A stretch of DNA of 32,417 bases from Candidatus Moraniibacteriota bacterium. GTDB lineage: Bacteria > Patescibacteriota > Minisyncoccia > Moranbacterales > UBA2206. Position 1 is the first letter of the stretch. The number at the start of each line of letters is the position of its first letter. The position numbers and the translations under genes were made by a program. Positions 9,991-32,417 of the stretch are shown here, one piece after another. Below the pieces are notes generated by a model that did not search any database, had not been told where the DNA came from, and was given only the letters and a program-made list of their open reading frames with translations. The stretch is taken from positions 1 to 32,417 of the forward strand of contig JBAXPY010000003.1 in assembly GCA_037132035.1 (NCBI GenBank), given 5' to 3'.

Positions 9991-10338
9991 ATGAATAAAA
10001 TTAGCCAAAACAATTTAAGATTACACCGAAAAAGACGCGTCCGCGCTAAAATTTCTGGGTCTGCTTCTGTACCACGACTGAATGTTTTTCGTAGCTTACT
10101 TTCAATGAAAGCTCAAGTAATTGATGACGTAGCGGGAAAGACGCTTGCGGCAGCTGATACGAAAGCAGCAAGCGCGAAAAATGATGTTGCGGGGGCGAAG
10201 GCAGTTGGAATGCTCATTGCCAAGAAATGCTTAGAGCAGAAAATCGCGGAAGTAGTTTTTGATCGAGCAGGATATAGATACCATGGAAAAGTTAAGGCTT
10301 TGGCTGAAGGCGCCAGAGAAGGCGGCTTAAAATTTTAA
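9991..10338 (+). CDS. rplR: 50S ribosomal protein L18
   Basis: PRLNVFRS, VVFDRAGYRYHGKVKALAEGAREGGL. Confidence 0.98.
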   Translation: MNKISQNNLRLHRKRRVRAKISGSASVPRLNVFRSLLSMKAQVIDDVAGKTLAAADTKAASAKNDVAGAKAVGMLIAKKCLEQKIAEVVFDRAGYRYHGKVKALAEGAREGGLKF

Positions 10339-10360
10339 ACTCTTTTAGTTATTAAACTAT

Positions 10361-10861
10361 ATGGCAAAGAACGATAGAAAATTTAGAGGAAAAAAAGAAA
10401 AGCCGGAATTTGAACAAAAACTTCTGGATCTTGCCCGTGTTACTCGCGTGGTGAAGGGAGGAAGACGATTTCGTTTTCGCGCAACTCTTGTAATTGGAAA
10501 TCGCAAAGGTAAAGTTGGCGTTGGAGTCGGTAAGGGATCGGATGTGACAGATGCAATTGGAAAAGCTTTTGATGATGCTAAGAAAAATATGATTACTGTT
10601 GCAATTAAAAATAATACGATTGCACACGAAGTACATCACAAAAAAGGTAGCGCTAAAGTAATTTTGAAACCAGCGAAGGTTGGAAGAAGTATTGTGGCTG
10701 GAGGAGCAGTGCGCGCTGTGGTTGATTTCGCTGGAATTCGCGATATTGTTTCCAAGTCTCTTGGAACAGCTAATAAGCTCAATGTGGCACGGGCAACGGT
10801 GGAAGCCTTGGGAATGCTGAGTGAGTCAAAGACGAGGAAGGAGAGAATTGCGAAAGCTTAG
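10361..10861 (+). CDS. rpsE: 30S ribosomal protein S5
   Basis: RVTRVVKGGRRFRF, AGGAVR, SKSLG. Confidence 0.98.
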   Translation: MAKNDRKFRGKKEKPEFEQKLLDLARVTRVVKGGRRFRFRATLVIGNRKGKVGVGVGKGSDVTDAIGKAFDDAKKNMITVAIKNNTIAHEVHHKKGSAKVILKPAKVGRSIVAGGAVRAVVDFAGIRDIVSKSLGTANKLNVARATVEALGMLSESKTRKERIAKA

Positions 10862-10864
10862 GCC

Positions 10865-10986
10865 TGTCATCCTCGCGAATGCGGGGATCCAGTGGAGAGA
10901 TTTTATTAAAAAGGTTAATCTAAATAGTAAGCCAATCTAGTTAAAGTTTATTTTTACACTAGATTTCCGCCTACGCGGGAATGACA
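10865..10986. repeat. paired-end palindromic element (TGTCAT...ATGACA family), copy A; MITE/REP-like
   Basis: 30-nt inverted arms 10865-10894 and 10957-10986 (23/30 match), each arm a hairpin, AT-rich spacer. Confidence 0.8.
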
Positions 10987-11006
10987 AGGAATATTATTAC
11001 AATTTT

Positions 11007-11462
11007 ATGTTAAGACAAGATTTACAAATGAGCCAGCCGAGGAAGAAGAAGAAAACCATCGGACGTGGAGGAAAAAAGGGAACATATTCCGGCAAGGGTA
11101 ATAAAGGACAAAAAGCGCGTTCTGGCGCACATGTTGATCCTTTGTTTGAAGGTGGACGCTCAACGTTGATCGACCACATGAAGAAAAAACGTGGTTTCAC
11201 TTCGCGAACGAAAAAACGTAGCATCGTGCAAATCGCGGATATTGAGAAAAACTTTGAAAATGGTGCTATAATCAGCGCAGAGTCTTTGGTGAACATGAAA
11301 TTGGTTGCGAGGAAGAATATTCCTCTTGGAATCAAAGTTCTCGGAAATGCAAAACTTACGAAAAAGTTTGTCTTTGAAAAAGAAATTTTTATTAGTGAAA
11401 CGGTAAAAAAAGCGATTGTGGCTGCGGGTGGTGAGGTGAAGGTTGAGGAAGCGGAGAAATAA
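11007..11462 (+). CDS. rplO: 50S ribosomal protein L15
   Basis: GRGG...SGKGNKGQKARSG, FEGG, IKVLG, AAGG. Confidence 0.97.
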   Translation: MLRQDLQMSQPRKKKKTIGRGGKKGTYSGKGNKGQKARSGAHVDPLFEGGRSTLIDHMKKKRGFTSRTKKRSIVQIADIEKNFENGAIISAESLVNMKLVARKNIPLGIKVLGNAKLTKKFVFEKEIFISETVKKAIVAAGGEVKVEEAEK

Positions 11463-11484
11463 AAAATAAAGCAGTGACTAAGGT

Positions 11485-12759
11485 ATGCTAGCTAAAATCA
11501 CTCAAATCTTTCGTATTAAAGAGCTTAGGAATAAAATATTTTTTATTCTGGCTCTTTTGGTTGTATTTCGTTTGGCAGCCAACATTCCTATCCCTGGCGT
11601 TGATCAGGACCGGCTCAAGGCATTTTTTGAGAGCAATGAGCTTTTTGGTTTACTTAATCTTTTTTCTGGGCAAGGATTGTCGAGTATTTCCCTGGTAATG
11701 CTTGGCGTGGGACCCTATATTACCGCCTCGATTATCATGCAGCTGCTTACGATGATTGTTCCAACATTGGAAAAAATATATAAGGAAGAGGGAGAGGCTG
11801 GGCGACAGAAATTTAATCAATGGACACGCTGGGCAACGGTGCCTCTCGCTGCGATGCAGACTTTTGGCATGATTGCACTTTTTCGTTCGCAAGGAATTAT
11901 TGCCGCGACTGGAGCGACAAGCGTGATTTCGATGATGGTAATTGCCACTGCCGGAACGATATTCCTTATGTGGCTAGGTGAGCTGATCACGGAAAAAGGG
12001 GTTGGTAACGGAGTTTCGCTCATCATTTTTGCTGGAATCGTTTCTGCCATTCCCTCGACAATAGCCAAGACTTATGCGACAGCGGATTCGTCACAAATTT
12101 TTACTTATTTGATCTTGGGTGCTATTTTGATCTTGGCAATTTCTGCTGTGGTCTTTATGACAGAGGGGCAGCGCAATATGCCTGTTTCTTACGCAAAAAG
12201 AATTAAGGGTAATAAAATGTACGGCGGAACTTCAACGCATTTACCACTGCGCATCAATCAGGCTGGCGTGATTCCGATTATTTTCGCACTTTCCATTATG
12301 CTTTTTCCAGGAATGATCGCTAATTTTCTTACGAAAAGTTCCAACACTACTCTTGCCAGTTTAGCTGTGAAGGTGAGTGCGCTTTTTTCTCCAAGCAATT
12401 GGTTCTATTGGTTGTTTTATTTTATTCTTGTTGTCGCCTTTACTTATTTTTATACCGCAGTTGTTTTTGATCCAAATAAAATTGCTGAAAGTTTGCAAAA
12501 GCAAGGTGGTTACATTCTCGGAATTCGTCCAGGAAAAAATACCGCTGATTATCTCTATCGTATTATGAATCGGATTACTCTTTCTGGCGCAGTTTTTTTA
12601 GGTCTTATCGCAATATTGCCTTTTTTTGTGGAAAGCTTTACTAATATCGGGTCTATCTCTATTGGTGGAACTGGACTCTTAATCGTTGTTTCGGTTGTGA
12701 TTGAAACAATTAAACAGGTACAAGGACAACTTGCGATGCGGGATTATGAAGGATTCTAA
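11485..12759 (+). CDS. secY: preprotein translocase subunit SecY
   Basis: LGVGPYITASIIMQLL, WLGELITEKGVGNGVSLIIF, AGVIPIIFA, GIRPG, GGTGLLIVV. Confidence 0.99.
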   Translation: MLAKITQIFRIKELRNKIFFILALLVVFRLAANIPIPGVDQDRLKAFFESNELFGLLNLFSGQGLSSISLVMLGVGPYITASIIMQLLTMIVPTLEKIYKEEGEAGRQKFNQWTRWATVPLAAMQTFGMIALFRSQGIIAATGATSVISMMVIATAGTIFLMWLGELITEKGVGNGVSLIIFAGIVSAIPSTIAKTYATADSSQIFTYLILGAILILAISAVVFMTEGQRNMPVSYAKRIKGNKMYGGTSTHLPLRINQAGVIPIIFALSIMLFPGMIANFLTKSSNTTLASLAVKVSALFSPSNWFYWLFYFILVVAFTYFYTAVVFDPNKIAESLQKQGGYILGIRPGKNTADYLYRIMNRITLSGAVFLGLIAILPFFVESFTNIGSISIGGTGLLIVVSVVIETIKQVQGQLAMRDYEGF

Positions 12760-25343: not shown

Positions 25344-25991
25344 TTGGAATTTAGCTTTATGGGTTTTATCGATTTTATTTTAAATGTAGATGTTCATTTG
25401 GGAGAAATTATTGCTAACTATGGAAGCTTGACTTATGGCATTTTATTTGCGATTGTTTTTGCGGAAACCGGATTTGTCTTTACCCCATTTTTGCCCGGAG
25501 ATTCGCTTCTTTTTGCGGCGGGAATGTTTTCGGCCACTGGATCATTTAATATTGTGATACTTGCTCCACTCCTTTGGGCAGCAGCTTTTCTTGGGGATAA
25601 TATTAATTATTGGGTTGGATTTTATTTTGGAAAGAAAATTGTTGATAATAAATATATTCCCGTTAATCAAACTCATATTGACCAGACACAAGAATTCTAT
25701 CACAAGCACGGAGGAAAAACCGTTTTTTTGGCGCGATTTATGCCAATTATTCGGACATTTGCTCCGTTTGTGGCGGGAATTGGGAGAATGGAATATCAAA
25801 AATTTCTTTTGTATAGTATTTCCGGAGGTTTCGTTTGGGTTTTCGGTTTTGTTTTGGCAGGGTATTTTTTTGGTAATATCCCGATTATCAGAGATAACTT
25901 TTCTATTGTGATTATGGGAATAATTGCGGTTTCGGTTTTGCCAGCGATATTTAAAATATCAAAAGAATGGTTAAAGAAAAAACAAGTATGA
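25344..25991 (+). CDS. DedA family membrane protein
   Basis: FAETG...FLPGDSLLFAAG, LGDNINY, ARFMPIIRTFAPFVAG; start may be ATG at 25359. Confidence 0.93.
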   Translation: MEFSFMGFIDFILNVDVHLGEIIANYGSLTYGILFAIVFAETGFVFTPFLPGDSLLFAAGMFSATGSFNIVILAPLLWAAAFLGDNINYWVGFYFGKKIVDNKYIPVNQTHIDQTQEFYHKHGGKTVFLARFMPIIRTFAPFVAGIGRMEYQKFLLYSISGGFVWVFGFVLAGYFFGNIPIIRDNFSIVIMGIIAVSVLPAIFKISKEWLKKKQV

Positions 25992-26749
25992 AAAAAATAA
26001 TTGTCGGTAACTTAAAAATGAATATCCTGTCTCAAGCTGAGCGAGAGACGTATCTCGGTGCGTTTAAAAAAGAATTAGCAGGAAAAAAAATAAATAATGC
26101 TGAAATTGTACTTTGTCCGCCGGCAATCCACTTGGAAAGTTTCGGAAAGGTGCTAGGAAAAAAAGTTGCGCTAGGCGGGCAAAACTGTTTTTGGGAAGAA
26201 AAGGGCTCGTATACGGGAGAAATTTCACCAGTAATGCTGAAAAATTTCGGCTCAGAATATGTGATTATCGGTCATAGTGAAAGACGTAAGTATTTTTTTG
26301 AAAATGATCAATCAATCAATCAAAAAGTGCTAGCAAGTCTTAAGAATGGTCTTAGTCCAATAATATGCGTGGGTGAAACGAAGGAAGAGCGGCAATCTGG
26401 CGAGACAATGTATGTAATAACCAGGCAAGTTAAAGAAGCTTTTGCTGGTGTGGCTCCAGGAAAGTTGGAAAAAATAGTCGTAGCCTATGAGCCGATTTGG
26501 TCAGTTGGATCAGATAGTATTCCGACAAGTAATGAGATTATGGAGGCAAAGGTTTTGATTCAAAAAATTCTGTCACGGAATTTTTCTCAAAATATGATTC
26601 AGAAAATGCGCATAATCTATGGCGGATCGGTCAGTGTGAAGACTGTAGCTCAGTCGTGTATTGAAAGTGGAATGGAAGGTGCGCTGATTGGGAGAGAATC
26701 GTTGGCGCCGAGGGAGTTTTTGAAAATAGCTAGGATAATTAATGGATAA
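25988..26749 (+). CDS. tpiA: triosephosphate isomerase
   Basis: GNLKMN, GHSERR, AYEPIW, YGGSV; ATG at 25988 overlaps the dedA stop (ATGA). Confidence 0.93.
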   Translation: MKKIIVGNLKMNILSQAERETYLGAFKKELAGKKINNAEIVLCPPAIHLESFGKVLGKKVALGGQNCFWEEKGSYTGEISPVMLKNFGSEYVIIGHSERRKYFFENDQSINQKVLASLKNGLSPIICVGETKEERQSGETMYVITRQVKEAFAGVAPGKLEKIVVAYEPIWSVGSDSIPTSNEIMEAKVLIQKILSRNFSQNMIQKMRIIYGGSVSVKTVAQSCIESGMEGALIGRESLAPREFLKIARIING

Positions 26750-26760
26750 TAATTTAATTT

Positions 26761-27624
26761 ATGATTACTTCAGTCAAGGAAATTTTGACAAAAGCAAAAG
26801 AAGGTAGTTATGCCGTAGGAGCATTTAACACTGTAAATCTTGAGACGACGCGGGCGATTGTGGCAGCAGCAAAGGAGATGCGTTCTCCTGTGATTATCCA
26901 AGTAACGGAGAAAACGATGGAATATGCTGGAGGAAGAGGGATTTTCCACTTGATAAAAAATGATGCTGAATTTTATGCCGCTGAAATCCCGATTGGGATT
27001 CATCTTGATCATGGGAAAAGTTTGGAAATAATTCAGCGAGCAGTTGCGATTGGATTTACCTCAGTCATGTATGATGGATCTCGAAAGGTCTTTATTGATA
27101 ATTTGGAGATAACAAAAAAAGTAGTCGAGTTTTGCCATGAGAGTGGAGTGGATGTCCAGGGGGAGTTGGGTAGTGTGCCCTATCTCGGTGAGGCTCAGAT
27201 GGGAGATATCGATTGGGATAAGTATATGACCGATCCTGTTCAGGCGAAGGTATTTGTTGAAGAGACTGGAATTGATGCTCTTGCTGTGGCAATTGGAAAT
27301 GCGCATGGGTTTCTCAAGGAAAGAGCCCAACCAGATTTTGACAGGATGGCGATGATTAATAAGAATTGTGCGCTTCCTTTCGTTTTACATGGAGCGTCAG
27401 ATTGGGAGAATGGAAAGGTCGTGGAGGCAATAAAAAATGGCGTTAGCTGTTTCAATGTGGACACTGCTATTCGTATCGCCTTTGTTAATAATCTGATTAA
27501 TTCCGTCAGTGGTCAAGGTGAGCTAGGATTTGATTTGAGAAAGCTTTTAGGTGGGGCTCAGGACGCAGTAAAAGAGACTGTTAAATATAAGATGAAGATA
27601 TTCGGTAGTGATGGCAAGGTTTAA
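26761..27624 (+). CDS. fba: class II fructose-bisphosphate aldolase
   Basis: YAVGAFN, HLDHG, SVMYDGS, GELG, AIGNAHG, LHGAS, NVDT. Confidence 0.94.
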   Translation: MITSVKEILTKAKEGSYAVGAFNTVNLETTRAIVAAAKEMRSPVIIQVTEKTMEYAGGRGIFHLIKNDAEFYAAEIPIGIHLDHGKSLEIIQRAVAIGFTSVMYDGSRKVFIDNLEITKKVVEFCHESGVDVQGELGSVPYLGEAQMGDIDWDKYMTDPVQAKVFVEETGIDALAVAIGNAHGFLKERAQPDFDRMAMINKNCALPFVLHGASDWENGKVVEAIKNGVSCFNVDTAIRIAFVNNLINSVSGQGELGFDLRKLLGGAQDAVKETVKYKMKIFGSDGKV

Positions 27625-27691
27625 TGCCAGTAGGTCGCTCGGTCCAAAAAGTAGATAGAATGTCCCGTGGCAAAAGAAAAATGAGCATAAG

Positions 27692-27727
27692 AAAAACTGG
27701 GGCCTTGCGCTTCAGTTTTTGTTTTTT
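27692..27727 (+). terminator. intrinsic terminator after fba
   Basis: AAAAACTGGGGC-cttgc-GCTTCAGTTTTT followed by GTTTTTT. Confidence 0.65.
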
Positions 27728-27730
27728 ACG

Positions 27731-27739
27731 TGATATAAT
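27731..27739 (+). promoter_or_regulatory. extended -10 promoter, leaderless start of the redox operon
   Basis: TGaTATAAT with 6 nt to ATG 27746. Confidence 0.6.
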
Positions 27740-27745
27740 CAATGC

Positions 27746-28198
27746 ATGCAAAACAATGTGACAGTAGAAAAAATATTAGTTTCATATGATCCGGAAGTGC
27801 AAAATTTATTGCCAGTGCTAAAAAAAATTAGTGCTGTTTTTGGGTTCATTGCCAGCAATGATGCAGAAATTGTTGCGGAGTATTTTGGGCTGTCGCTAGC
27901 GAAAATTTGCGAAGTCGCCAGTTTTTATGATTTGATTAAAACTAAAAAACCAGCTAATTTGGAAATTAAGGTTTGCTCTAGCGGGGATTGCGTTTTAGGT
28001 TCCTCGGCTGAAATTATCCAAGAAATTGAAAATTATTTTCGAATCAAGGCTGGTGATGAATTTAATCCAAAAGTACGTTTGGAAAAAATCAGCTGTCTTG
28101 GTCGTTGTGGAGAAGGACCGGTCGTTGTGATAAATGGGAAGGTTTATGAAAAAGTGACGGAGAGTTCTATTCATAAGATTTTAACAGAGTGGGCTTAG
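27746..28198 (+). CDS. NuoE/HydC/HoxE-like [2Fe-2S] thioredoxin-fold subunit
   Basis: EVASFY, VCSSGDC...SCLGRCGEGPVVVING. Confidence 0.9.
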   Translation: MQNNVTVEKILVSYDPEVQNLLPVLKKISAVFGFIASNDAEIVAEYFGLSLAKICEVASFYDLIKTKKPANLEIKVCSSGDCVLGSSAEIIQEIENYFRIKAGDEFNPKVRLEKISCLGRCGEGPVVVINGKVYEKVTESSIHKILTEWA

Positions 28199-28204
28199 GA
28201 GTAT

Positions 28205-28355
28205 CATCCTCTCCCTTAGGGAGAGGATGTCCGAAGGACAGGTGAGGGAAAAGGGTGTTATTGAAAAAGAAAAGTTATATAGATAGTAACGGTTATTGTT
28301 GAACGGCTTCTCCCTCATCCGGCTTTCAGCCACCTTCTCCCTAATGGAGAAGGGG
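28205..28355. repeat. paired-end double-hairpin element (CCTCTCCC/GGGAGAGG ... CCCTCA family)
   Basis: Left CATCCTCTCCC-tta-GGGAGAGGATG, TGTCC-gaa-GGACA, GGTGAGGG; right CCCTCATCC, GGCT-ttc-AGCC, CCTTCTCC-ctaat-GGAGAAGG. Confidence 0.8.
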
Positions 28356-28386
28356 AAATAAATAGAAATTGCCATTTTCATTTTTT

Positions 28387-29568
28387 ATGCAAAAAAATAT
28401 AAAAATTATCACCGAACATTGGGGCAAAATTAATCCTTTGAAAATAGAGGACTACGTTTTTGTTGGTGGTTACGAGGCGCTTAAAAAATTCATTGAAAAA
28501 TCAGATTCAAAAGGCGCATTGGAAGCAGTGAAATTATCGAGACTTTCTGGGCGAGGTGGGGCGGGCTTTTTAACAGGAGTGAAATGGGAAATGGTCGCCG
28601 CGCAGAAAGGTGAAAAATATTTTGTTTGTAATTTAGATGAATCAGAGCCGGGGACGTATAAGGATCGGTTAATTGCAGAAAATAACCCGCATTTACTTTT
28701 AGAAGGGATAGTTCTTTCCGCTCTCACAATTGGCGCGAAAAAAAGTTATATCTATCTCAATGGAAATTACGAAAAAGCAAAGGAAGTTTTAGCGCGAGCA
28801 ATTTTGCAGGCCCAAGAGCGTAAATTTTTAGGGACAAAAATATTGGGATCAAAATATTCATTAGAGATTGAGATTTTTTCTGGCGCCGGAGCCTATATCT
28901 GCGGAGAAGAAACGGCGCTCTTGAGTTCCATCGAAGGTAATCGCGGAGAACCAAAAATGCGGCCACCCTATCCAACGGAAAGTGGACTTTTCGGAAAACC
29001 TACGGTAGTGAATAATGCTGAAACGATTACTAATATTCCCTGGATTATCCAAAATGGCGGAAAAAAGTATCTCAAGTGCGCTACAAAATTATTTGTGCTT
29101 GGTGGATCTGTTAAGAATGTGGGTGTATTTGAGGCTCCAATCGCTACTACGATAGATGAGGCAATTACTAAATTGGGGGGAGGAATGCAGGAGGGTAAGG
29201 AATTTTGGTTCGCCCAAGTTGGTGGGGCATCTGGAGGGCTATATCTCGAAAAAGAGCTAGGCAGGACTATTCTAGGGTCAGGTGCAATTTTGGTGGTGGA
29301 TAAAACTGCTAATATTTACGACCTATTATTATCCTGGACGGGTTTTTTTCGAAGAGAATCATGTGGAAAATGTGTGCCATGCCGTGAAGGGACCTTTCGC
29401 CTACATGAAATTGCTGAACGCTTAGCAGATGGCGAAATAGCTGATCGTGATAAAGAAGCACTGAATGATATTTTATGGACGCTAGAAAATACAACCTTTT
29501 GTCCATTGGGAAAATTTGCTGCCGTAGCGGTGCGAGATGCGATTGATAAGTTAGGAATTTTGAAATAA
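28387..29568 (+). CDS. NuoF/HydB-like FMN/NADH-binding [4Fe-4S] subunit (short form)
   Basis: LSGRGGAGF, CNLDESEPGTYKDR, GAGAYICGEETAL, NNAET, ESCGKCVPCREG...FCPLG; ATG at 28387. Confidence 0.93.
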   Translation: MQKNIKIITEHWGKINPLKIEDYVFVGGYEALKKFIEKSDSKGALEAVKLSRLSGRGGAGFLTGVKWEMVAAQKGEKYFVCNLDESEPGTYKDRLIAENNPHLLLEGIVLSALTIGAKKSYIYLNGNYEKAKEVLARAILQAQERKFLGTKILGSKYSLEIEIFSGAGAYICGEETALLSSIEGNRGEPKMRPPYPTESGLFGKPTVVNNAETITNIPWIIQNGGKKYLKCATKLFVLGGSVKNVGVFEAPIATTIDEAITKLGGGMQEGKEFWFAQVGGASGGLYLEKELGRTILGSGAILVVDKTANIYDLLLSWTGFFRRESCGKCVPCREGTFRLHEIAERLADGEIADRDKEALNDILWTLENTTFCPLGKFAAVAVRDAIDKLGILK

Positions 29569-29571
29569 ATT

Positions 29572-30612
29572 ATGCAAATCAAAATCAATAACAAAAAATA
29601 TTCTGCAAAAGTGGGGGAAACTATTTTCCAAGTTTGCATGCGCGAGGGAATAAAAATTCCGACGCTTTGTGGAGCAAAATTTTCCCACGAAGGGCTATGT
29701 CGAATTTGCGTGGTGGAGTTTACTGGGCGCCTTATTACTTCTTGTAACACTAAAGTTTGCAAAGATATGGAGCTTGTCACGGAAAGTGAAAAAATCTCTA
29801 AAGCAAGAAGGATTAATCTGGAACTACTCTGGGCTGACCACGCGGGGAAATGCGCGACTTGCAAGAAAAATCGCCTGTGTGATTTGCAAAAGTTGGCCGA
29901 GGAATACAAGATTGAAAACTTCCATTTTGTGCCAAGGAAAGGCGAAATGACTAATAGCGAGGAGCAAAAACTGCTTCGTGATAATTGGTCACGAGTTGTC
30001 GTGGAAAATGAAAATCCTTGCATTTCGCGTAACTCAGAGTTTTGTGTGGAATGTCGCAAGTGCATCAATATTTGTCCGGAAAAGAAATTTGGATTCAATC
30101 ATCGCGCAAGAGATGTGGTTGTCGGGACGCCATACGAAAAAGTGCTGAATTGTAGTTTTTGCGGAAAATGCGTTGAGGTGTGCCCCGTGGCGGCACTCAC
30201 TGATCAAAACGATTTTTCAAAAATAATTGAAGATTTGGATGATTTGAAAAAGTTTTCTGTGGTGGTCATTGATTTGGAAATGGACGGAAAAATAAGGGAG
30301 CAGTTGAAAAATATTTCTCACGAGCAAAATTTTGAAAAAATATTTTTTGATTTAGGTTTTGAAAAAATAATAAAACTAGAAGAAAAAGATCGAAATGAGG
30401 AAGATGAGATTATGAAACAAATTAAAACTGATTATGCTCGAAAAGAAAAAATTGATCCAAAAAATATTTGCATGTTTTTTATTTCTTCTAAAATTTATAA
30501 AAAAGTTCGCAAGAATGAATATTTGGACTATGTCCTGTCGGAGCGGGAAGTAGTGAGGTTGGTGAGAGATAGAGGAAATATTGTAGCGGGGAAAATGAAA
30601 ATTAAAGCTTAG
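29572..30612 (+). CDS. HydA/HndD/NuoG-like FeS subunit with degenerate, truncated [FeFe] H-domain
   Basis: [2Fe-2S] (PTLC..CRIC..SC), HxxxCxxCx5C, two [4Fe-4S] motifs (CVECRKC..CP, CSFCGKC..CP); no H-cluster motifs. Confidence 0.85.
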   Translation: MQIKINNKKYSAKVGETIFQVCMREGIKIPTLCGAKFSHEGLCRICVVEFTGRLITSCNTKVCKDMELVTESEKISKARRINLELLWADHAGKCATCKKNRLCDLQKLAEEYKIENFHFVPRKGEMTNSEEQKLLRDNWSRVVVENENPCISRNSEFCVECRKCINICPEKKFGFNHRARDVVVGTPYEKVLNCSFCGKCVEVCPVAALTDQNDFSKIIEDLDDLKKFSVVVIDLEMDGKIREQLKNISHEQNFEKIFFDLGFEKIIKLEEKDRNEEDEIMKQIKTDYARKEKIDPKNICMFFISSKIYKKVRKNEYLDYVLSEREVVRLVRDRGNIVAGKMKIKA

Positions 30613-30621
30613 ATAAGGCCT

Positions 30622-30825
30622 ATGTGTCTCGCGATCCCAGGAAAAATTATGGCAATTAAAAATCAACTGGCGACAGTTGATTTTGATGGTATTGAAAAAG
30701 AAATCAATATTTCATTAGTGGATGCTAAGATTGGTGAATACGTTATGGTGCATGCTGGTTTTGCGATTGAGAAAATGGATGATGAATATGCAAAAGAGAT
30801 GATGGGGTATTTGGGGAAAAAGTAA
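30622..30825 (+). CDS. hypC: [NiFe] hydrogenase maturation chaperone HypC
   Basis: MCLAIPG, GEYVMVHAGFAI. Confidence 0.97.
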   Translation: MCLAIPGKIMAIKNQLATVDFDGIEKEINISLVDAKIGEYVMVHAGFAIEKMDDEYAKEMMGYLGKK

Positions 30826-30826
30826 T

Positions 30827-31867
30827 ATGCAACCTACTGCGGACAAAATCATAGAGGATATTCAAAAAAAGGCGGCCCAGATCGGTCGACCTTTACGGTT
30901 CATGGAGCTTTGCGGTACGCATTCACAGACAATTGCGGAGCATGGGATCAAAAAACTGATGCCAAAAAATATCACACTTGTTTCTGGTCCTGGATGTCCG
31001 GTTTGCGTGACGGATCAATCAGACATTGATATTGTCGTTGGTCTTGCGCTAGCAGGAATTCCAACCGCTGTTTATGGAGATACGATACAAGTACCTGGAA
31101 ATTTAATGAGTCTTGAAGAAGCGAAAAGATTTGGCGCTGATGTGCAGATTGTTTATTCAATCACCGAAGCAGTTGAGTCGCAAAAAGAAAAATCCAATTT
31201 AGTTTTTTTTGGACTTGGTTTTGAAACGACGACGGGAATGACGGCCTGGGCGATAAAAGAGGGGCTCACGGTTTATAGCGCCCACAAACTTTTTCCGCCT
31301 GCGATGCAAGCACTTCTTGAAAACAAAAAAATCCGAGTCGACGGTTTTATCGATCCGGGGCATGTGAGTGCCATAATTGGCACAGAAGTCTATCAAAAAT
31401 TCAATATCCCTCAGGTCGTGGCTGGTTTTTCTGGTGAAGATGTTTTAGTTGCAATCAATGTGCTGCTTACACAGATCTTGGAAAACAAGTCTCGTGTGGA
31501 AAATGCTTACGGTAGGCTAGTGAAAAAGGGAGGAAATAAAAAAGCGCTAAAGTTAATCAACGAAGTTTTTGAAGTTAGTGATGCGAAGTGGCGAGGCCTT
31601 GGAGAAATCAAGAATTCTGGACTAAAAATTCGAAAAAAATATCAGGCACAAGATGCGGAATTTGTGCATGGGAAATTGATCGAAAAAATAAAAAAAGAAA
31701 TAAGGCCAAAACCAAGCGCTTGCAGGTGCGGATTGGTTTTGCAAGGACTTCTTGAGCCAAAAGATTGTTTACTGTTTAGGAAAGTTTGCACGCCGAATAG
31801 CCCACAGGGGGCTTGCATGGTTTCGGTGGAGGGGAGTTGTAATGTGGAATATAGATATGATAATTGA
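30827..31867 (+). CDS. hypD: [NiFe] hydrogenase maturation protein HypD
   Basis: MELCGTH, GPGCPVCVT, GFETT, PGHVS, CTPxxPxGACMVSxEGSC. Confidence 0.97.
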   Translation: MQPTADKIIEDIQKKAAQIGRPLRFMELCGTHSQTIAEHGIKKLMPKNITLVSGPGCPVCVTDQSDIDIVVGLALAGIPTAVYGDTIQVPGNLMSLEEAKRFGADVQIVYSITEAVESQKEKSNLVFFGLGFETTTGMTAWAIKEGLTVYSAHKLFPPAMQALLENKKIRVDGFIDPGHVSAIIGTEVYQKFNIPQVVAGFSGEDVLVAINVLLTQILENKSRVENAYGRLVKKGGNKKALKLINEVFEVSDAKWRGLGEIKNSGLKIRKKYQAQDAEFVHGKLIEKIKKEIRPKPSACRCGLVLQGLLEPKDCLLFRKVCTPNSPQGACMVSVEGSCNVEYRYDN

Positions 31868-31881
31868 AATGCTTTCTTTTG

Positions 31882-31905
31882 TGTCATTCCCGCACAGGAA
31901 TGACA
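31882..31905. repeat. collapsed copy C of the TGTCAT...ATGACA element
   Basis: TGTCATTCC-cgcaca-GGAATGACA, same termini as copies A and B. Confidence 0.65.
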
Positions 31906-31951
31906 AAAAGGGGTAGTTTTAGCTTGGAAAGTGCAATGTAAGAATAACTCT

Positions 31952-32417
31952 ATGGAAAAAATAAAAAATAAATTTATAGAATTGGAAGATGGTGGCGGAG
32001 GCGAAAAGTCATCAAAGCTTATCTCTGAGATTAGAAAGTTTTTCCTTGTATCAAAAAAATGGGAAAATACCAAAGATGATGGGGCTGTATATGATCTGGG
32101 AAAGGAAAAATTAGTCTTCACAACTGATGCGTTTATTGTGGATCCAATTTTTTTTCCGGGCGGAGACATTGGGAAAATCGCCATTTGCGGGACGATTAAT
32201 GATCTCTCGGTGATGGGCGCGCTGCCGATTGGAATATCACTCAGTGTTGTGATTGAGGAAGGCTTTCCCCTGGAAGATTTGAAAAAAATAATGCAGTCAA
32301 TCGGAAAAATTTCCAAGGAGACCGGTGTGCCGATTGTGACGGGGGACACTAAGGTGACCGAAAAAGGCAAAATCGACAAGATTGAAATTACGACTTCTGG
32401 CGTGGGGCTCGCTAAGA
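31952..32417 (+). CDS. hypE: [NiFe] hydrogenase maturation protein HypE, runs off the window end
   Basis: Own translation from ATG 31952: GGGG, DDGA, FTTDAFIVDPIFFPGGDIGK, CGTINDL, IVTGDTKV; not in the ORF track because no stop is reached. Confidence 0.95.
   Translation, partial: MEKIKNKFIELEDGGGGEKSSKLISEIRKFFLVSKKWENTKDDGAVYDLGKEKLVFTTDAFIVDPIFFPGGDIGKIAICGTINDLSVMGALPIGISLSVVIEEGFPLEDLKKIMQSIGKISKETGVPIVTGDTKVTEKGKIDKIEITTSGVGLAK

Follow-up and report, generated by a model that had tools for sequence, protein, structure and literature searches.

A NuoE-NuoF-HydA trio of [FeFe] hydrogenase descent near [NiFe] hydrogenase genes in a Candidatus Moraniibacteriota bacterium: a candidate NADH-linked hydrogenase system

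The locus and its closest described counterparts

The only characterised case of a [NiFe] catalyst on the NADH chassis of an [FeFe] hydrogenase is the Acetomicrobium enzyme, NiFe-HydABCSL of A. mobile (7T2R/7T30; PMC8880783, PMC9304861). The locus described here comes from a Candidatus Moraniibacteriota bacterium (Moranbacteria, candidate phyla radiation) and lies at nt 27746–32417 of a 32,417 nt stretch of DNA (the window, meaning the whole stretch analysed), which is the entire contig C3 (JBAXPY010000003.1) of assembly GCA_037132035.1 (G000 below; 1.08 Mb in 104 contigs, 83% complete, so that absence from this genome means 'not found'). Six co-directional open reading frames (ORFs), at the positions given in a preliminary description made from the sequence alone, encode NuoE-like, NuoF-like and HydA-like subunits (the trio; its third member is called HydA' here), followed by HypC, HypD and the N-terminal half of HypE. 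On two other contigs of the same genome lie the genes for the small and large subunits of a [NiFe] hydrogenase (the dimer). We put the chances at about even that the window encodes the half that oxidises NADH, and the proteins that build the cofactor, in a chimeric [NiFe] hydrogenase system that is NADH-linked and does not bifurcate.

As far as the two cited descriptions of the A. mobile enzyme go, it shares with the present locus homologues of HydC, HydB and HydA, a HydA without the H-cluster motif, and [NiFe] subunits of group 3. The differences are considerable. BfuB is defined in PMC9304861 by a 2x[4Fe-4S] ferredoxin-type domain together with clusters B2–B5, and unlike A. mobile HydB the NuoF of the window is minimal (399 aa) and without B2–B5, so no bifurcation is expected; it resembles the short, non-bifurcating homologues without B2–B5 mentioned in the same description. 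While the proximal cluster is the only one in A. mobile HydS (179 aa in 7T2R), the small subunit here has three clusters in a core of about 255 aa; and while A. mobile HydA has a C-terminal domain with the A5 cluster, HydA' has a stub without a cluster, and the fold match between the two is N-terminal only. Both the large and the small subunit are 3b-like here. The parallel with Acetomicrobium drawn in the preliminary description thus holds for a HydA without an H-cluster alongside [NiFe] subunits and fails for membership of that family, three of whose defining features are not found. The origin of the present arrangement was probably independent of the Acetomicrobium enzyme.

Group 3b enzymes (P. 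furiosus sulfhydrogenase I, T. kodakarensis Hyh) have alpha- and delta-like subunits in common with the dimer, but no gamma subunit was found here, and the NuoE-NuoF-HydA' trio occupies the place expected of the diaphorase. In bacteria of the candidate phyla radiation (CPR), Jaffe et al. (2020) described the 3b-related clades hyd1 and hyd2, which in some cases lack beta and gamma subunits and whose function is perhaps supported 'with unknown genes' (PMC7304191). The mean hyd1 small-subunit length given there, 250 aa, fits the core of about 255 aa seen here, and on this length the dimer would be assigned to hyd1. A large subunit that stops at its last histidine is a further point of agreement with these group 3b and 3b-related enzymes. 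The main text of that paper mentions no NuoEF or [FeFe] genes near the CPR enzymes (0 occurrences of 'FeFe'), and NuoF-like families close to hyd1 may appear in the context tables of its supplements. Valentin-Alvarado et al. (2024; PMC10811913) reported 3b enzymes of four subunits from Berkelbacteria and Moranbacteria, and the HydDB paper tabulates a Moranbacteria 3b enzyme. In the main texts of the literature, no description was found that pairs a NuoEF-HydA' module with a [NiFe] hydrogenase of 3b type in CPR bacteria.

The trimeric [FeFe] HydABC enzymes (T. kivui 8A6T, A. woodii 7Q4V, T. maritima 7P5H) have the C-B-A gene order and the iron-sulfur (FeS) domain of HydA in common with the trio, and are nearest to it in sequence and fold. 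They differ in that the trio has no H-cluster ligands, and in that none of HydE, HydF and HydG was found in G000, an absence that the preliminary description had proposed to confirm.

HydA' and its descent from an [FeFe] hydrogenase

Residues 1–233 of HydA' accommodate one [2Fe-2S], one His-ligated [4Fe-4S] and two ferredoxin-type [4Fe-4S] clusters (domains Fer2_4, NADH-G_4Fe-4S_3 and 2x[4Fe-4S] ferredoxin), and the 16 ligands of these four accessory clusters are invariant in an alignment of 30 sequences. The C-terminal 110 residues are a remnant of the H-domain; the sole cysteine of residues 234–346 stands at 300, no cluster ligands remain, and the domain search gave no match to Fe_hyd_lg_C in HydA'. 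The H-cluster motifs P1, P2 and P3 can be followed in the alignment: P1 and P3 are deleted, and in P2 the cysteine has been replaced (SSK, against MPC in full-length relatives), which bears out the earlier statement that the subunit lacks an H-cluster. The H-domain was not found anywhere in G000.

HydA' is of [FeFe] hydrogenase descent: three lines of evidence, namely the remnant of the H-domain, the tree and the fold match, agree on this, and the claim of an [FeFe]-derived trio stands on them as well. By sequence, HydA of T. kivui (117 bits) comes first among the solved chains, ahead of HydA of A. woodii (97) and T. maritima (96), and A. mobile NiFe-HydA (64) and HoxU (58) score lower; the top NCBIfam model is NADH-dependent [FeFe] hydrogenase group A6 (168 bits), ahead of HoxU (110) and NuoG (91). 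HMMER gives a faint second alignment of residues 285–335 to the H-domain. With a hidden Markov model of the H-domain specific to the clade, HydA' scores 16.5 bits, intermediate forms of 468–482 aa 114–141 bits, and full-length forms of 584–602 aa 593–659 bits. In Foldseek searches with an AlphaFold2 model of HydA' (pLDDT 80–94 across residues 211–330), CpI and HydA match over about 410 columns (TMq 0.70–0.72), and A. mobile NiFe-HydA and complex I cover just the N-terminal 220 columns or so (TMq 0.49–0.50).

The HydA tree was built from the N-terminal region with 151 rows, after 22 of 173 had been excluded for covering fewer than 180 profile positions. The 12 relic forms group together (support 92) and make a clade with seven intermediates (SH-aLRT 99), which nests with 10 full-length CPR HydA (99); 36 long rows of NuoG/Fdh type are a separate clade (support 96). 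In sister CPR lineages the same locus, beside the genes for triosephosphate isomerase (TPI) and class II fructose-bisphosphate aldolase (FBA), encodes a full-length HydA (584–602 aa) with a short NuoF, and the NuoE and NuoF partners as well as the FeS domain of HydA' are orthologous to those of the full-length loci.

Order-wide counts refer to 151 sampled genomes of the order, in families labelled f1, f4, f5, f6, f9 and f10, the window's own being f1. HydA' has a match in 60 of these genomes, and NuoF (PF01512), found in 61, tracks HydA. Short frames of 343–361 aa occur in seven genomes, plus one frame cut at a contig end, and frames of 469–532 aa in nine, all from f1; frames of at least 579 aa belong mainly to f4, f9, f10, f5 and f6, with three distant matches in f1 (G052, G143, G149). 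About 40 of the sampled genomes (e.g. loci L021–L030, HydA genes at about 10001–11760) have a full-length HydA of 579–631 aa with intact H-cluster motifs; HydG, HydF and HydE were detected in just 2, 1 and 2 of the 151 genomes. These enzymes are [FeFe] hydrogenases without known maturases.

The relatives form a motif series, from the full H-cluster set through four cysteines only to none. Six of the seven intermediates examined keep exactly the four cubane cysteines and have lost the first cysteine of the CC pair, which, by CpI numbering, is the proton relay. Within f1 the H-domain first lost this cysteine together with much of its length, and then, in the genus of the window, was reduced to a ligand-free stub. 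The stub of 110 residues is predicted to be folded, and it is under selection rather than junk. Among 12 pairs compared, dN/dS is 0.03–0.09 for the FeS part (10 computable pairs) and 0.10–0.25 for the stub (11 computable), rough values given that dS is mostly saturated. The reading frames are intact in the 11 relic and four intermediate loci whose sequence was read in its entirety, and no internal stop was seen in eight relic and nine intermediate genome matches. HydA' belongs to a small family: only 16 of 1.84 billion representative proteins match it at E <= 1e-30.

NuoE matches PF01257 (2Fe-2S_thioredx, 108 bits) and has ligand cysteines at 77, 82, 117 and 121; the NCBIfam HoxE match is 82 bits, far under the cut-off of 224. 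NuoF consists of Complex1_51K (140 bits), SLBB and NADH_4Fe-4S and nothing further, with [4Fe-4S] ligands at Cys 332, 335, 338 and 378, and the domain search found neither a ferredoxin-type domain nor an N-terminal [2Fe-2S] domain in it. The true start of NuoF is probably the ATG at 28387. Against A. mobile HydB it scores 323 bits, the alignment being restricted to residues 111–508 of the 597-aa protein, and against HoxF of the solved 3d enzyme 195 bits, the weakest of the relevant matches. At one related locus (L016:6762-9479) the NuoF frame is 906 aa long, with about 490 additional N-terminal residues.

The [NiFe] subunits, their maturation genes and gene order

The [NiFe] structural genes lie beyond the window, as had been supposed, the small-subunit gene on contig C61 and the large-subunit gene on C5. 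The last 6 bases of the window recur as the opening 6 of C61, and joining the two contigs gives hypE just as it stands, uninterrupted, in L009, the nearest relative (HydA' 93% identical). After hypE, C61 carries hypF on the opposite strand, a 228-aa gene, the small-subunit gene and a matrixin-like protease gene (M10); C5 carries the large-subunit gene and then genes for desulfoferrodoxin (superoxide reductase, SOR), a short HypA-like protein and glyceraldehyde-3-phosphate dehydrogenase (GAPDH). In L009 there is a single cluster, TPI-FBA-NuoE-NuoF-HydA'-HypC-HypD-HypE-(HypF')-x-small subunit-M10-large subunit-SOR-HypA-GAPDH. The placing of the system among glycolytic genes is therefore correct, TPI, FBA and GAPDH flanking the cluster.

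The small subunit (318 aa) has a core of about 255 aa with 12 invariant cysteines, which would hold three clusters. Its best match is the 3b delta subunit (123 bits), with HoxY at 77 and A. mobile HydS (7t2r_E) at 57. An N-terminal extension of about 60 residues, rich in Lys and Ala (C61 2714-2900), is very variable in length among relatives. The large subunit (419 aa) has RICGICPVVH at residue 58 and a terminal DPCISCAVH, giving Ni-Fe cysteines 60, 63, 413 and 416, and terminates exactly at the last histidine without a C-terminal tail. It is closest to the 3b alpha subunit of P. furiosus sulfhydrogenase I (209 bits), followed by A. mobile HydL (172), MvhA (161) and HoxH (128). NCBIfam sulfhydrogenase models score best for both subunits, sulfhyd_HydA reaching 228 bits for the large subunit, under its equivalog cut-off of 880.

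A different, second [NiFe] pair is found at two f4 loci (L044, L045), its large subunit about 30% identical to that of the window system and carrying a 7-residue tail, its small subunit 155 aa long; these genomes also encode a full-length HydA with NuoEF on another contig, and the L044 pair adjoins a reverse-transcriptase gene.

Two further genes accompany the dimer. A protein of about 220 aa (228 aa in G000, C61 1952-2638; L009:14739-15422; L033:1935-2600) is conserved beside the small-subunit gene in f1 and, at 27% identity (E 3e-8), in f5. It has no Pfam or NCBIfam match, and its best scores in the ESM Atlas (0.79–0.81) are at chance level; it might serve in maturation or as a partner. The matrixin-like zinc protease (C61 3693-4718) is membrane-anchored, has the motif HExxHxxGxxH and is encoded between the small- and large-subunit genes in f1 (10 related loci); the gene is absent at that spot in f5 and f6 loci.

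HypC, HypD and HypE are present in G000. HypF is represented by its Kae1-like C-terminal half only (444 aa; C61 537-1871, minus strand), and the HypA-like protein (C5 3696-4019) scores 28.0 bits, just below the cut-off of 28.9, covering the first 67 of 112 profile positions. HypB and the HycI protease were not found in G000. The 3b gamma marker PF10418 (FAD/NAD(P), DHODB-type [2Fe-2S]) was found neither in G000 nor in any of five other genomes of the genus; it occurs in eight of the 151 genomes, and in the single match checked (G020) it sits on a different contig from the large subunit. No 3b beta subunit is present among the annotated loci, no search having been made with a beta-subunit model. 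Four other genomes (G059 with L052, G087 with L042, G036 with L049, and the L010 genome) encode a small/large pair with intact CxxC, and HypD was not found in them, three being 99–100% complete and the fourth of unstated completeness. In G059, G036 and the L010 genome a second HypC-like gene and a gene of 211–242 aa without known function stand just 5' of the small-subunit gene.

Features of the window from the TPI gene to the contig end are collected in Table 1.

Table 1. Genes and signals of the window around the NuoE-NuoF-HydA' trio
Feature	Position (nt)	Strand	Remark
TPI gene	25967-26749		upstream of trio
Class II aldolase (FBA) gene	26761-27624		between TPI and trio
Terminator-like hairpin, 12 pairs + T-run	27692..27720	+	after aldolase gene
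Extended -10-like TGATATAAT	27731..27739	+	six bases 5' of nuoE ATG, just past hairpin; read from sequence
NuoE/HydC-like [2Fe-2S] subunit, 150 aa	27746..28198	+	
Palindrome-rich dispersed repeat, 170 nt	28199..28368	+	directly 5' of nuoF
NuoF/HydB-like FMN + NADH subunit, 399 aa	28369..29568	+	
HydA', 346 aa	29572..30612	+	
hypC	30622..30825	+	domain match
hypD	30827..31867	+	HypD match, 405 bits
hypE, N-terminal half	31931..32417	+	cut by contig end, continues on C61

ORFs and domain matches agree with the order first described, a HydC/HydB/HydA trio followed within 9 nt by hypC and then by hypD and hypE. The intergenic gaps are 170 nt (nuoE-nuoF), 3 nt (nuoF-hydA'), 9 nt (hydA'-hypC), 1 nt (hypC-hypD) and 63 nt (hypD-hypE). 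The terminator-like hairpin would mark the beginning of a new transcription unit. Of the single promoter predicted earlier, an extended -10 element, TGATATAAT, can be seen, and is a possible promoter giving a leaderless transcript; a two-hexamer scan misses it and has no site in 27625-27745, and with 17 sites in total, against 14.2 +/- 4.3 in shuffled sequences, the scan shows no excess. The nuoE-nuoF gap is occupied, up to the nuoF start, by the dispersed repeat, which contains two palindromes, has copies of 146–174 nt (71–82% identity) on six other contigs (C74, C53, C45, C55, C34 and C13), and is missing at this site in L009. A search of sequencing runs returned 20 DNA runs holding the stretch, all from lake and freshwater metagenomes (15 studies).

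Possible coupling of the trio and the dimer

If the two modules work together, NADH would reduce the FMN on NuoF, and electrons would pass from the NuoF [4Fe-4S] cluster through the four clusters of HydA' and the three of the small subunit to the Ni-Fe site, where protons would be reduced to H2; the contact between HydA' and the small subunit would be either direct or through a small carrier. With redox potentials of about -320 mV and -414 mV, the step from NADH to H2 is feasible only at low H2. Glycolytic NADH, with GAPDH flanking the cluster, would thus be disposed of as H2 when H2 stays low. Without the bifurcation clusters this would be a simple NADH-to-H2 reaction, and the non-bifurcating homologues lacking B2–B5 that are named in PMC9304861 function likewise. 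More tentatively, and with less than an even chance, all five proteins may form one enzyme that arose by exchange of the catalyst in situ, the 3b-type alpha-delta dimer docking on the former [FeFe] FeS wire with the stub as docking platform.

We infer the coupling in this genome largely from gene content and position. The [NiFe] large subunit (PF00374) occurs in 76 of the 151 genomes, among them 16 of the 17 with a short HydA, and in 11 of these 16 it is encoded 4–11 kb downstream on the same contig and strand. In the L010 genome, G036 and G059 the trio is not separated by hypCDEF genes from those of the dimer. This distribution agrees with the [NiFe] dimer having taken the place of the H-cluster in situ, and suggests that one hydrogen catalyst replaced another on the same chassis. 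Mirror-tree residual correlations of the small subunit are 0.73 with NuoF, 0.53 with NuoE, 0.46 with HydA', 0.67 with the large subunit and 0.16 with HypD; the sample behind them (8 genomes, 28 non-independent pairs, regressed on TPI/FBA/GAPDH distances) is too small and too closely related to carry weight.

A number of observations weigh against such coupling. All short-HydA genomes come from f1, which brings their co-occurrence with the large subunit close to one evolutionary event. In f5 and f6 an orthologous dimer (65–72% identity) occupies the same setting, TPI-FBA-HypC...small subunit-large subunit-HypA-GAPDH; the large subunit is present in 18 of 20 f5 and 16 of 20 f6 genomes and NuoF in only 2 of 20 and 1 of 20, so the dimer does not require the trio. 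The small subunit is strongly conserved, its C-terminal tail included, in genomes with and without the trio, and one complete f1 genome (G087, 100%) has the dimer and no trio. Conversely, G108 (98% complete) has TPI-FBA-NuoE-NuoF-HydA'-SOR-GAPDH with intact ligands (L043, G108:C8 5480-10169), while the large subunit and HypD were not found in it; the trio therefore has, or can have, a role without the [NiFe] enzyme. In G000 itself, the protease gene on C61 and the large-subunit gene on C5 are set apart by four or more additional genes, or else by a rearrangement, and with hypF, which is read in the other direction, placed between trio and small-subunit gene a single operon for everything is unlikely. 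No RNA runs holding the stretch were listed in the sequencing-run search. The earlier proposal of a diaphorase arm rewired to serve a [NiFe] enzyme accordingly stands as regards the [FeFe] origin and the [NiFe] genes downstream, and service to the dimer stays a candidate role, the dimer occurring alone in f5 and f6 and the trio alone in G108.

These same patterns lend an appreciable, if lesser than even, likelihood to a reading in which the modules are neighbours and not partners: the dimer would use an unknown carrier (e.g. ferredoxin), and the trio would be a free-standing NADH:acceptor oxidoreductase feeding ferredoxin or SOR. Beyond the separate occurrence of dimer (f5, f6, G087) and trio (G108, with SOR directly after it), such a reading agrees with the position of SOR 3' of the large-subunit gene in f1 loci and not in the f5/f6 loci examined, and with a small subunit that is 55–97% identical whether or not the trio is there and shows no obvious trio-specific region. 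Transfer from NADH to ferredoxin would, however, be uphill without bifurcation, for which this NuoF lacks the clusters. Shrinkage of the H-domain is, moreover, confined to the family with a 3b-type dimer in the same cluster, and the L010 and G036 clusters are tight and co-directional with no hyp genes intervening. That the trio donates electrons to superoxide reductase, as the order in G108 and the f1 loci might hint, is speculation, and we know of no precedent for a NuoEF-type donor to that enzyme.

It is improbable that the trio is simply the decaying remnant of a dead [FeFe] hydrogenase, without present function. The progressive loss of the H-domain, the rarity of HydE, HydF and HydG (2, 1 and 2 of 151 genomes) and the repeat element inserted between nuoE and nuoF would all suit decay, but the frames are intact, the 16 cluster ligands invariant and the dN/dS values low in both parts of HydA' (0.03–0.09 and 0.10–0.25), the stub is predicted to fold confidently, and the genes have been kept in at least 11 genera whose genomes measure about 1 Mb.

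It is very improbable that the system is an electron-bifurcating enzyme of the NiFe-HydABCSL (Bfu) type, as in A. mobile. The two share the idea of HydABC homologues with an H-cluster-less HydA and [NiFe] subunits, as described for A. mobile in PMC8880783, and NuoF scores well against A. mobile HydB (323 bits), but the large subunit is nearer 3b and the stub has no cluster ligands. The candidate was rejected as contradicted by domain content, namely a NuoF without B2–B5 and a three-cluster small subunit, and by phylogeny.

It is hardly credible that the trio is the usual HoxEFU diaphorase of a bidirectional [NiFe] hydrogenase of group 3d. The NuoE/NuoF/HoxU-like domain order and the weak NCBIfam matches to HoxE (82 bits) and HoxU (110 bits) are set against a HoxU cut-off of 333 and the higher-scoring [FeFe] A6 model (168), solved 3d HoxF, HoxU, HoxY and HoxH give the lowest scores among the relevant matches (195, 58, 77 and 128 bits), and a canonical HoxEFU is contradicted by a HydA' that nests within [FeFe] HydA and keeps an H-domain remnant and by a three-cluster small subunit. 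The two findings that the preliminary description had named as contrary to its own proposal, a genome without a [NiFe] large subunit and a trio grouping with canonical HoxEFU/NuoEFG, were thus not made.

Should the coupling of trio and dimer be real, it would be a second, probably independent, case of a [NiFe] catalyst on the NADH chassis of an [FeFe] hydrogenase, in a simple non-bifurcating version. It would supply the missing redox partner for one group of CPR '3b-related' hydrogenases, a gap left in Jaffe et al. (2020), and would account for the re-oxidation of glycolytic NADH in these fermenters. The genomes with only the dimer or only the trio bear on which partner the CPR hydrogenases use. 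Each stage of the exchange (full H-domain, cubane-only, stub) survives in living relatives, which makes modular hydrogenase evolution directly testable in this order.

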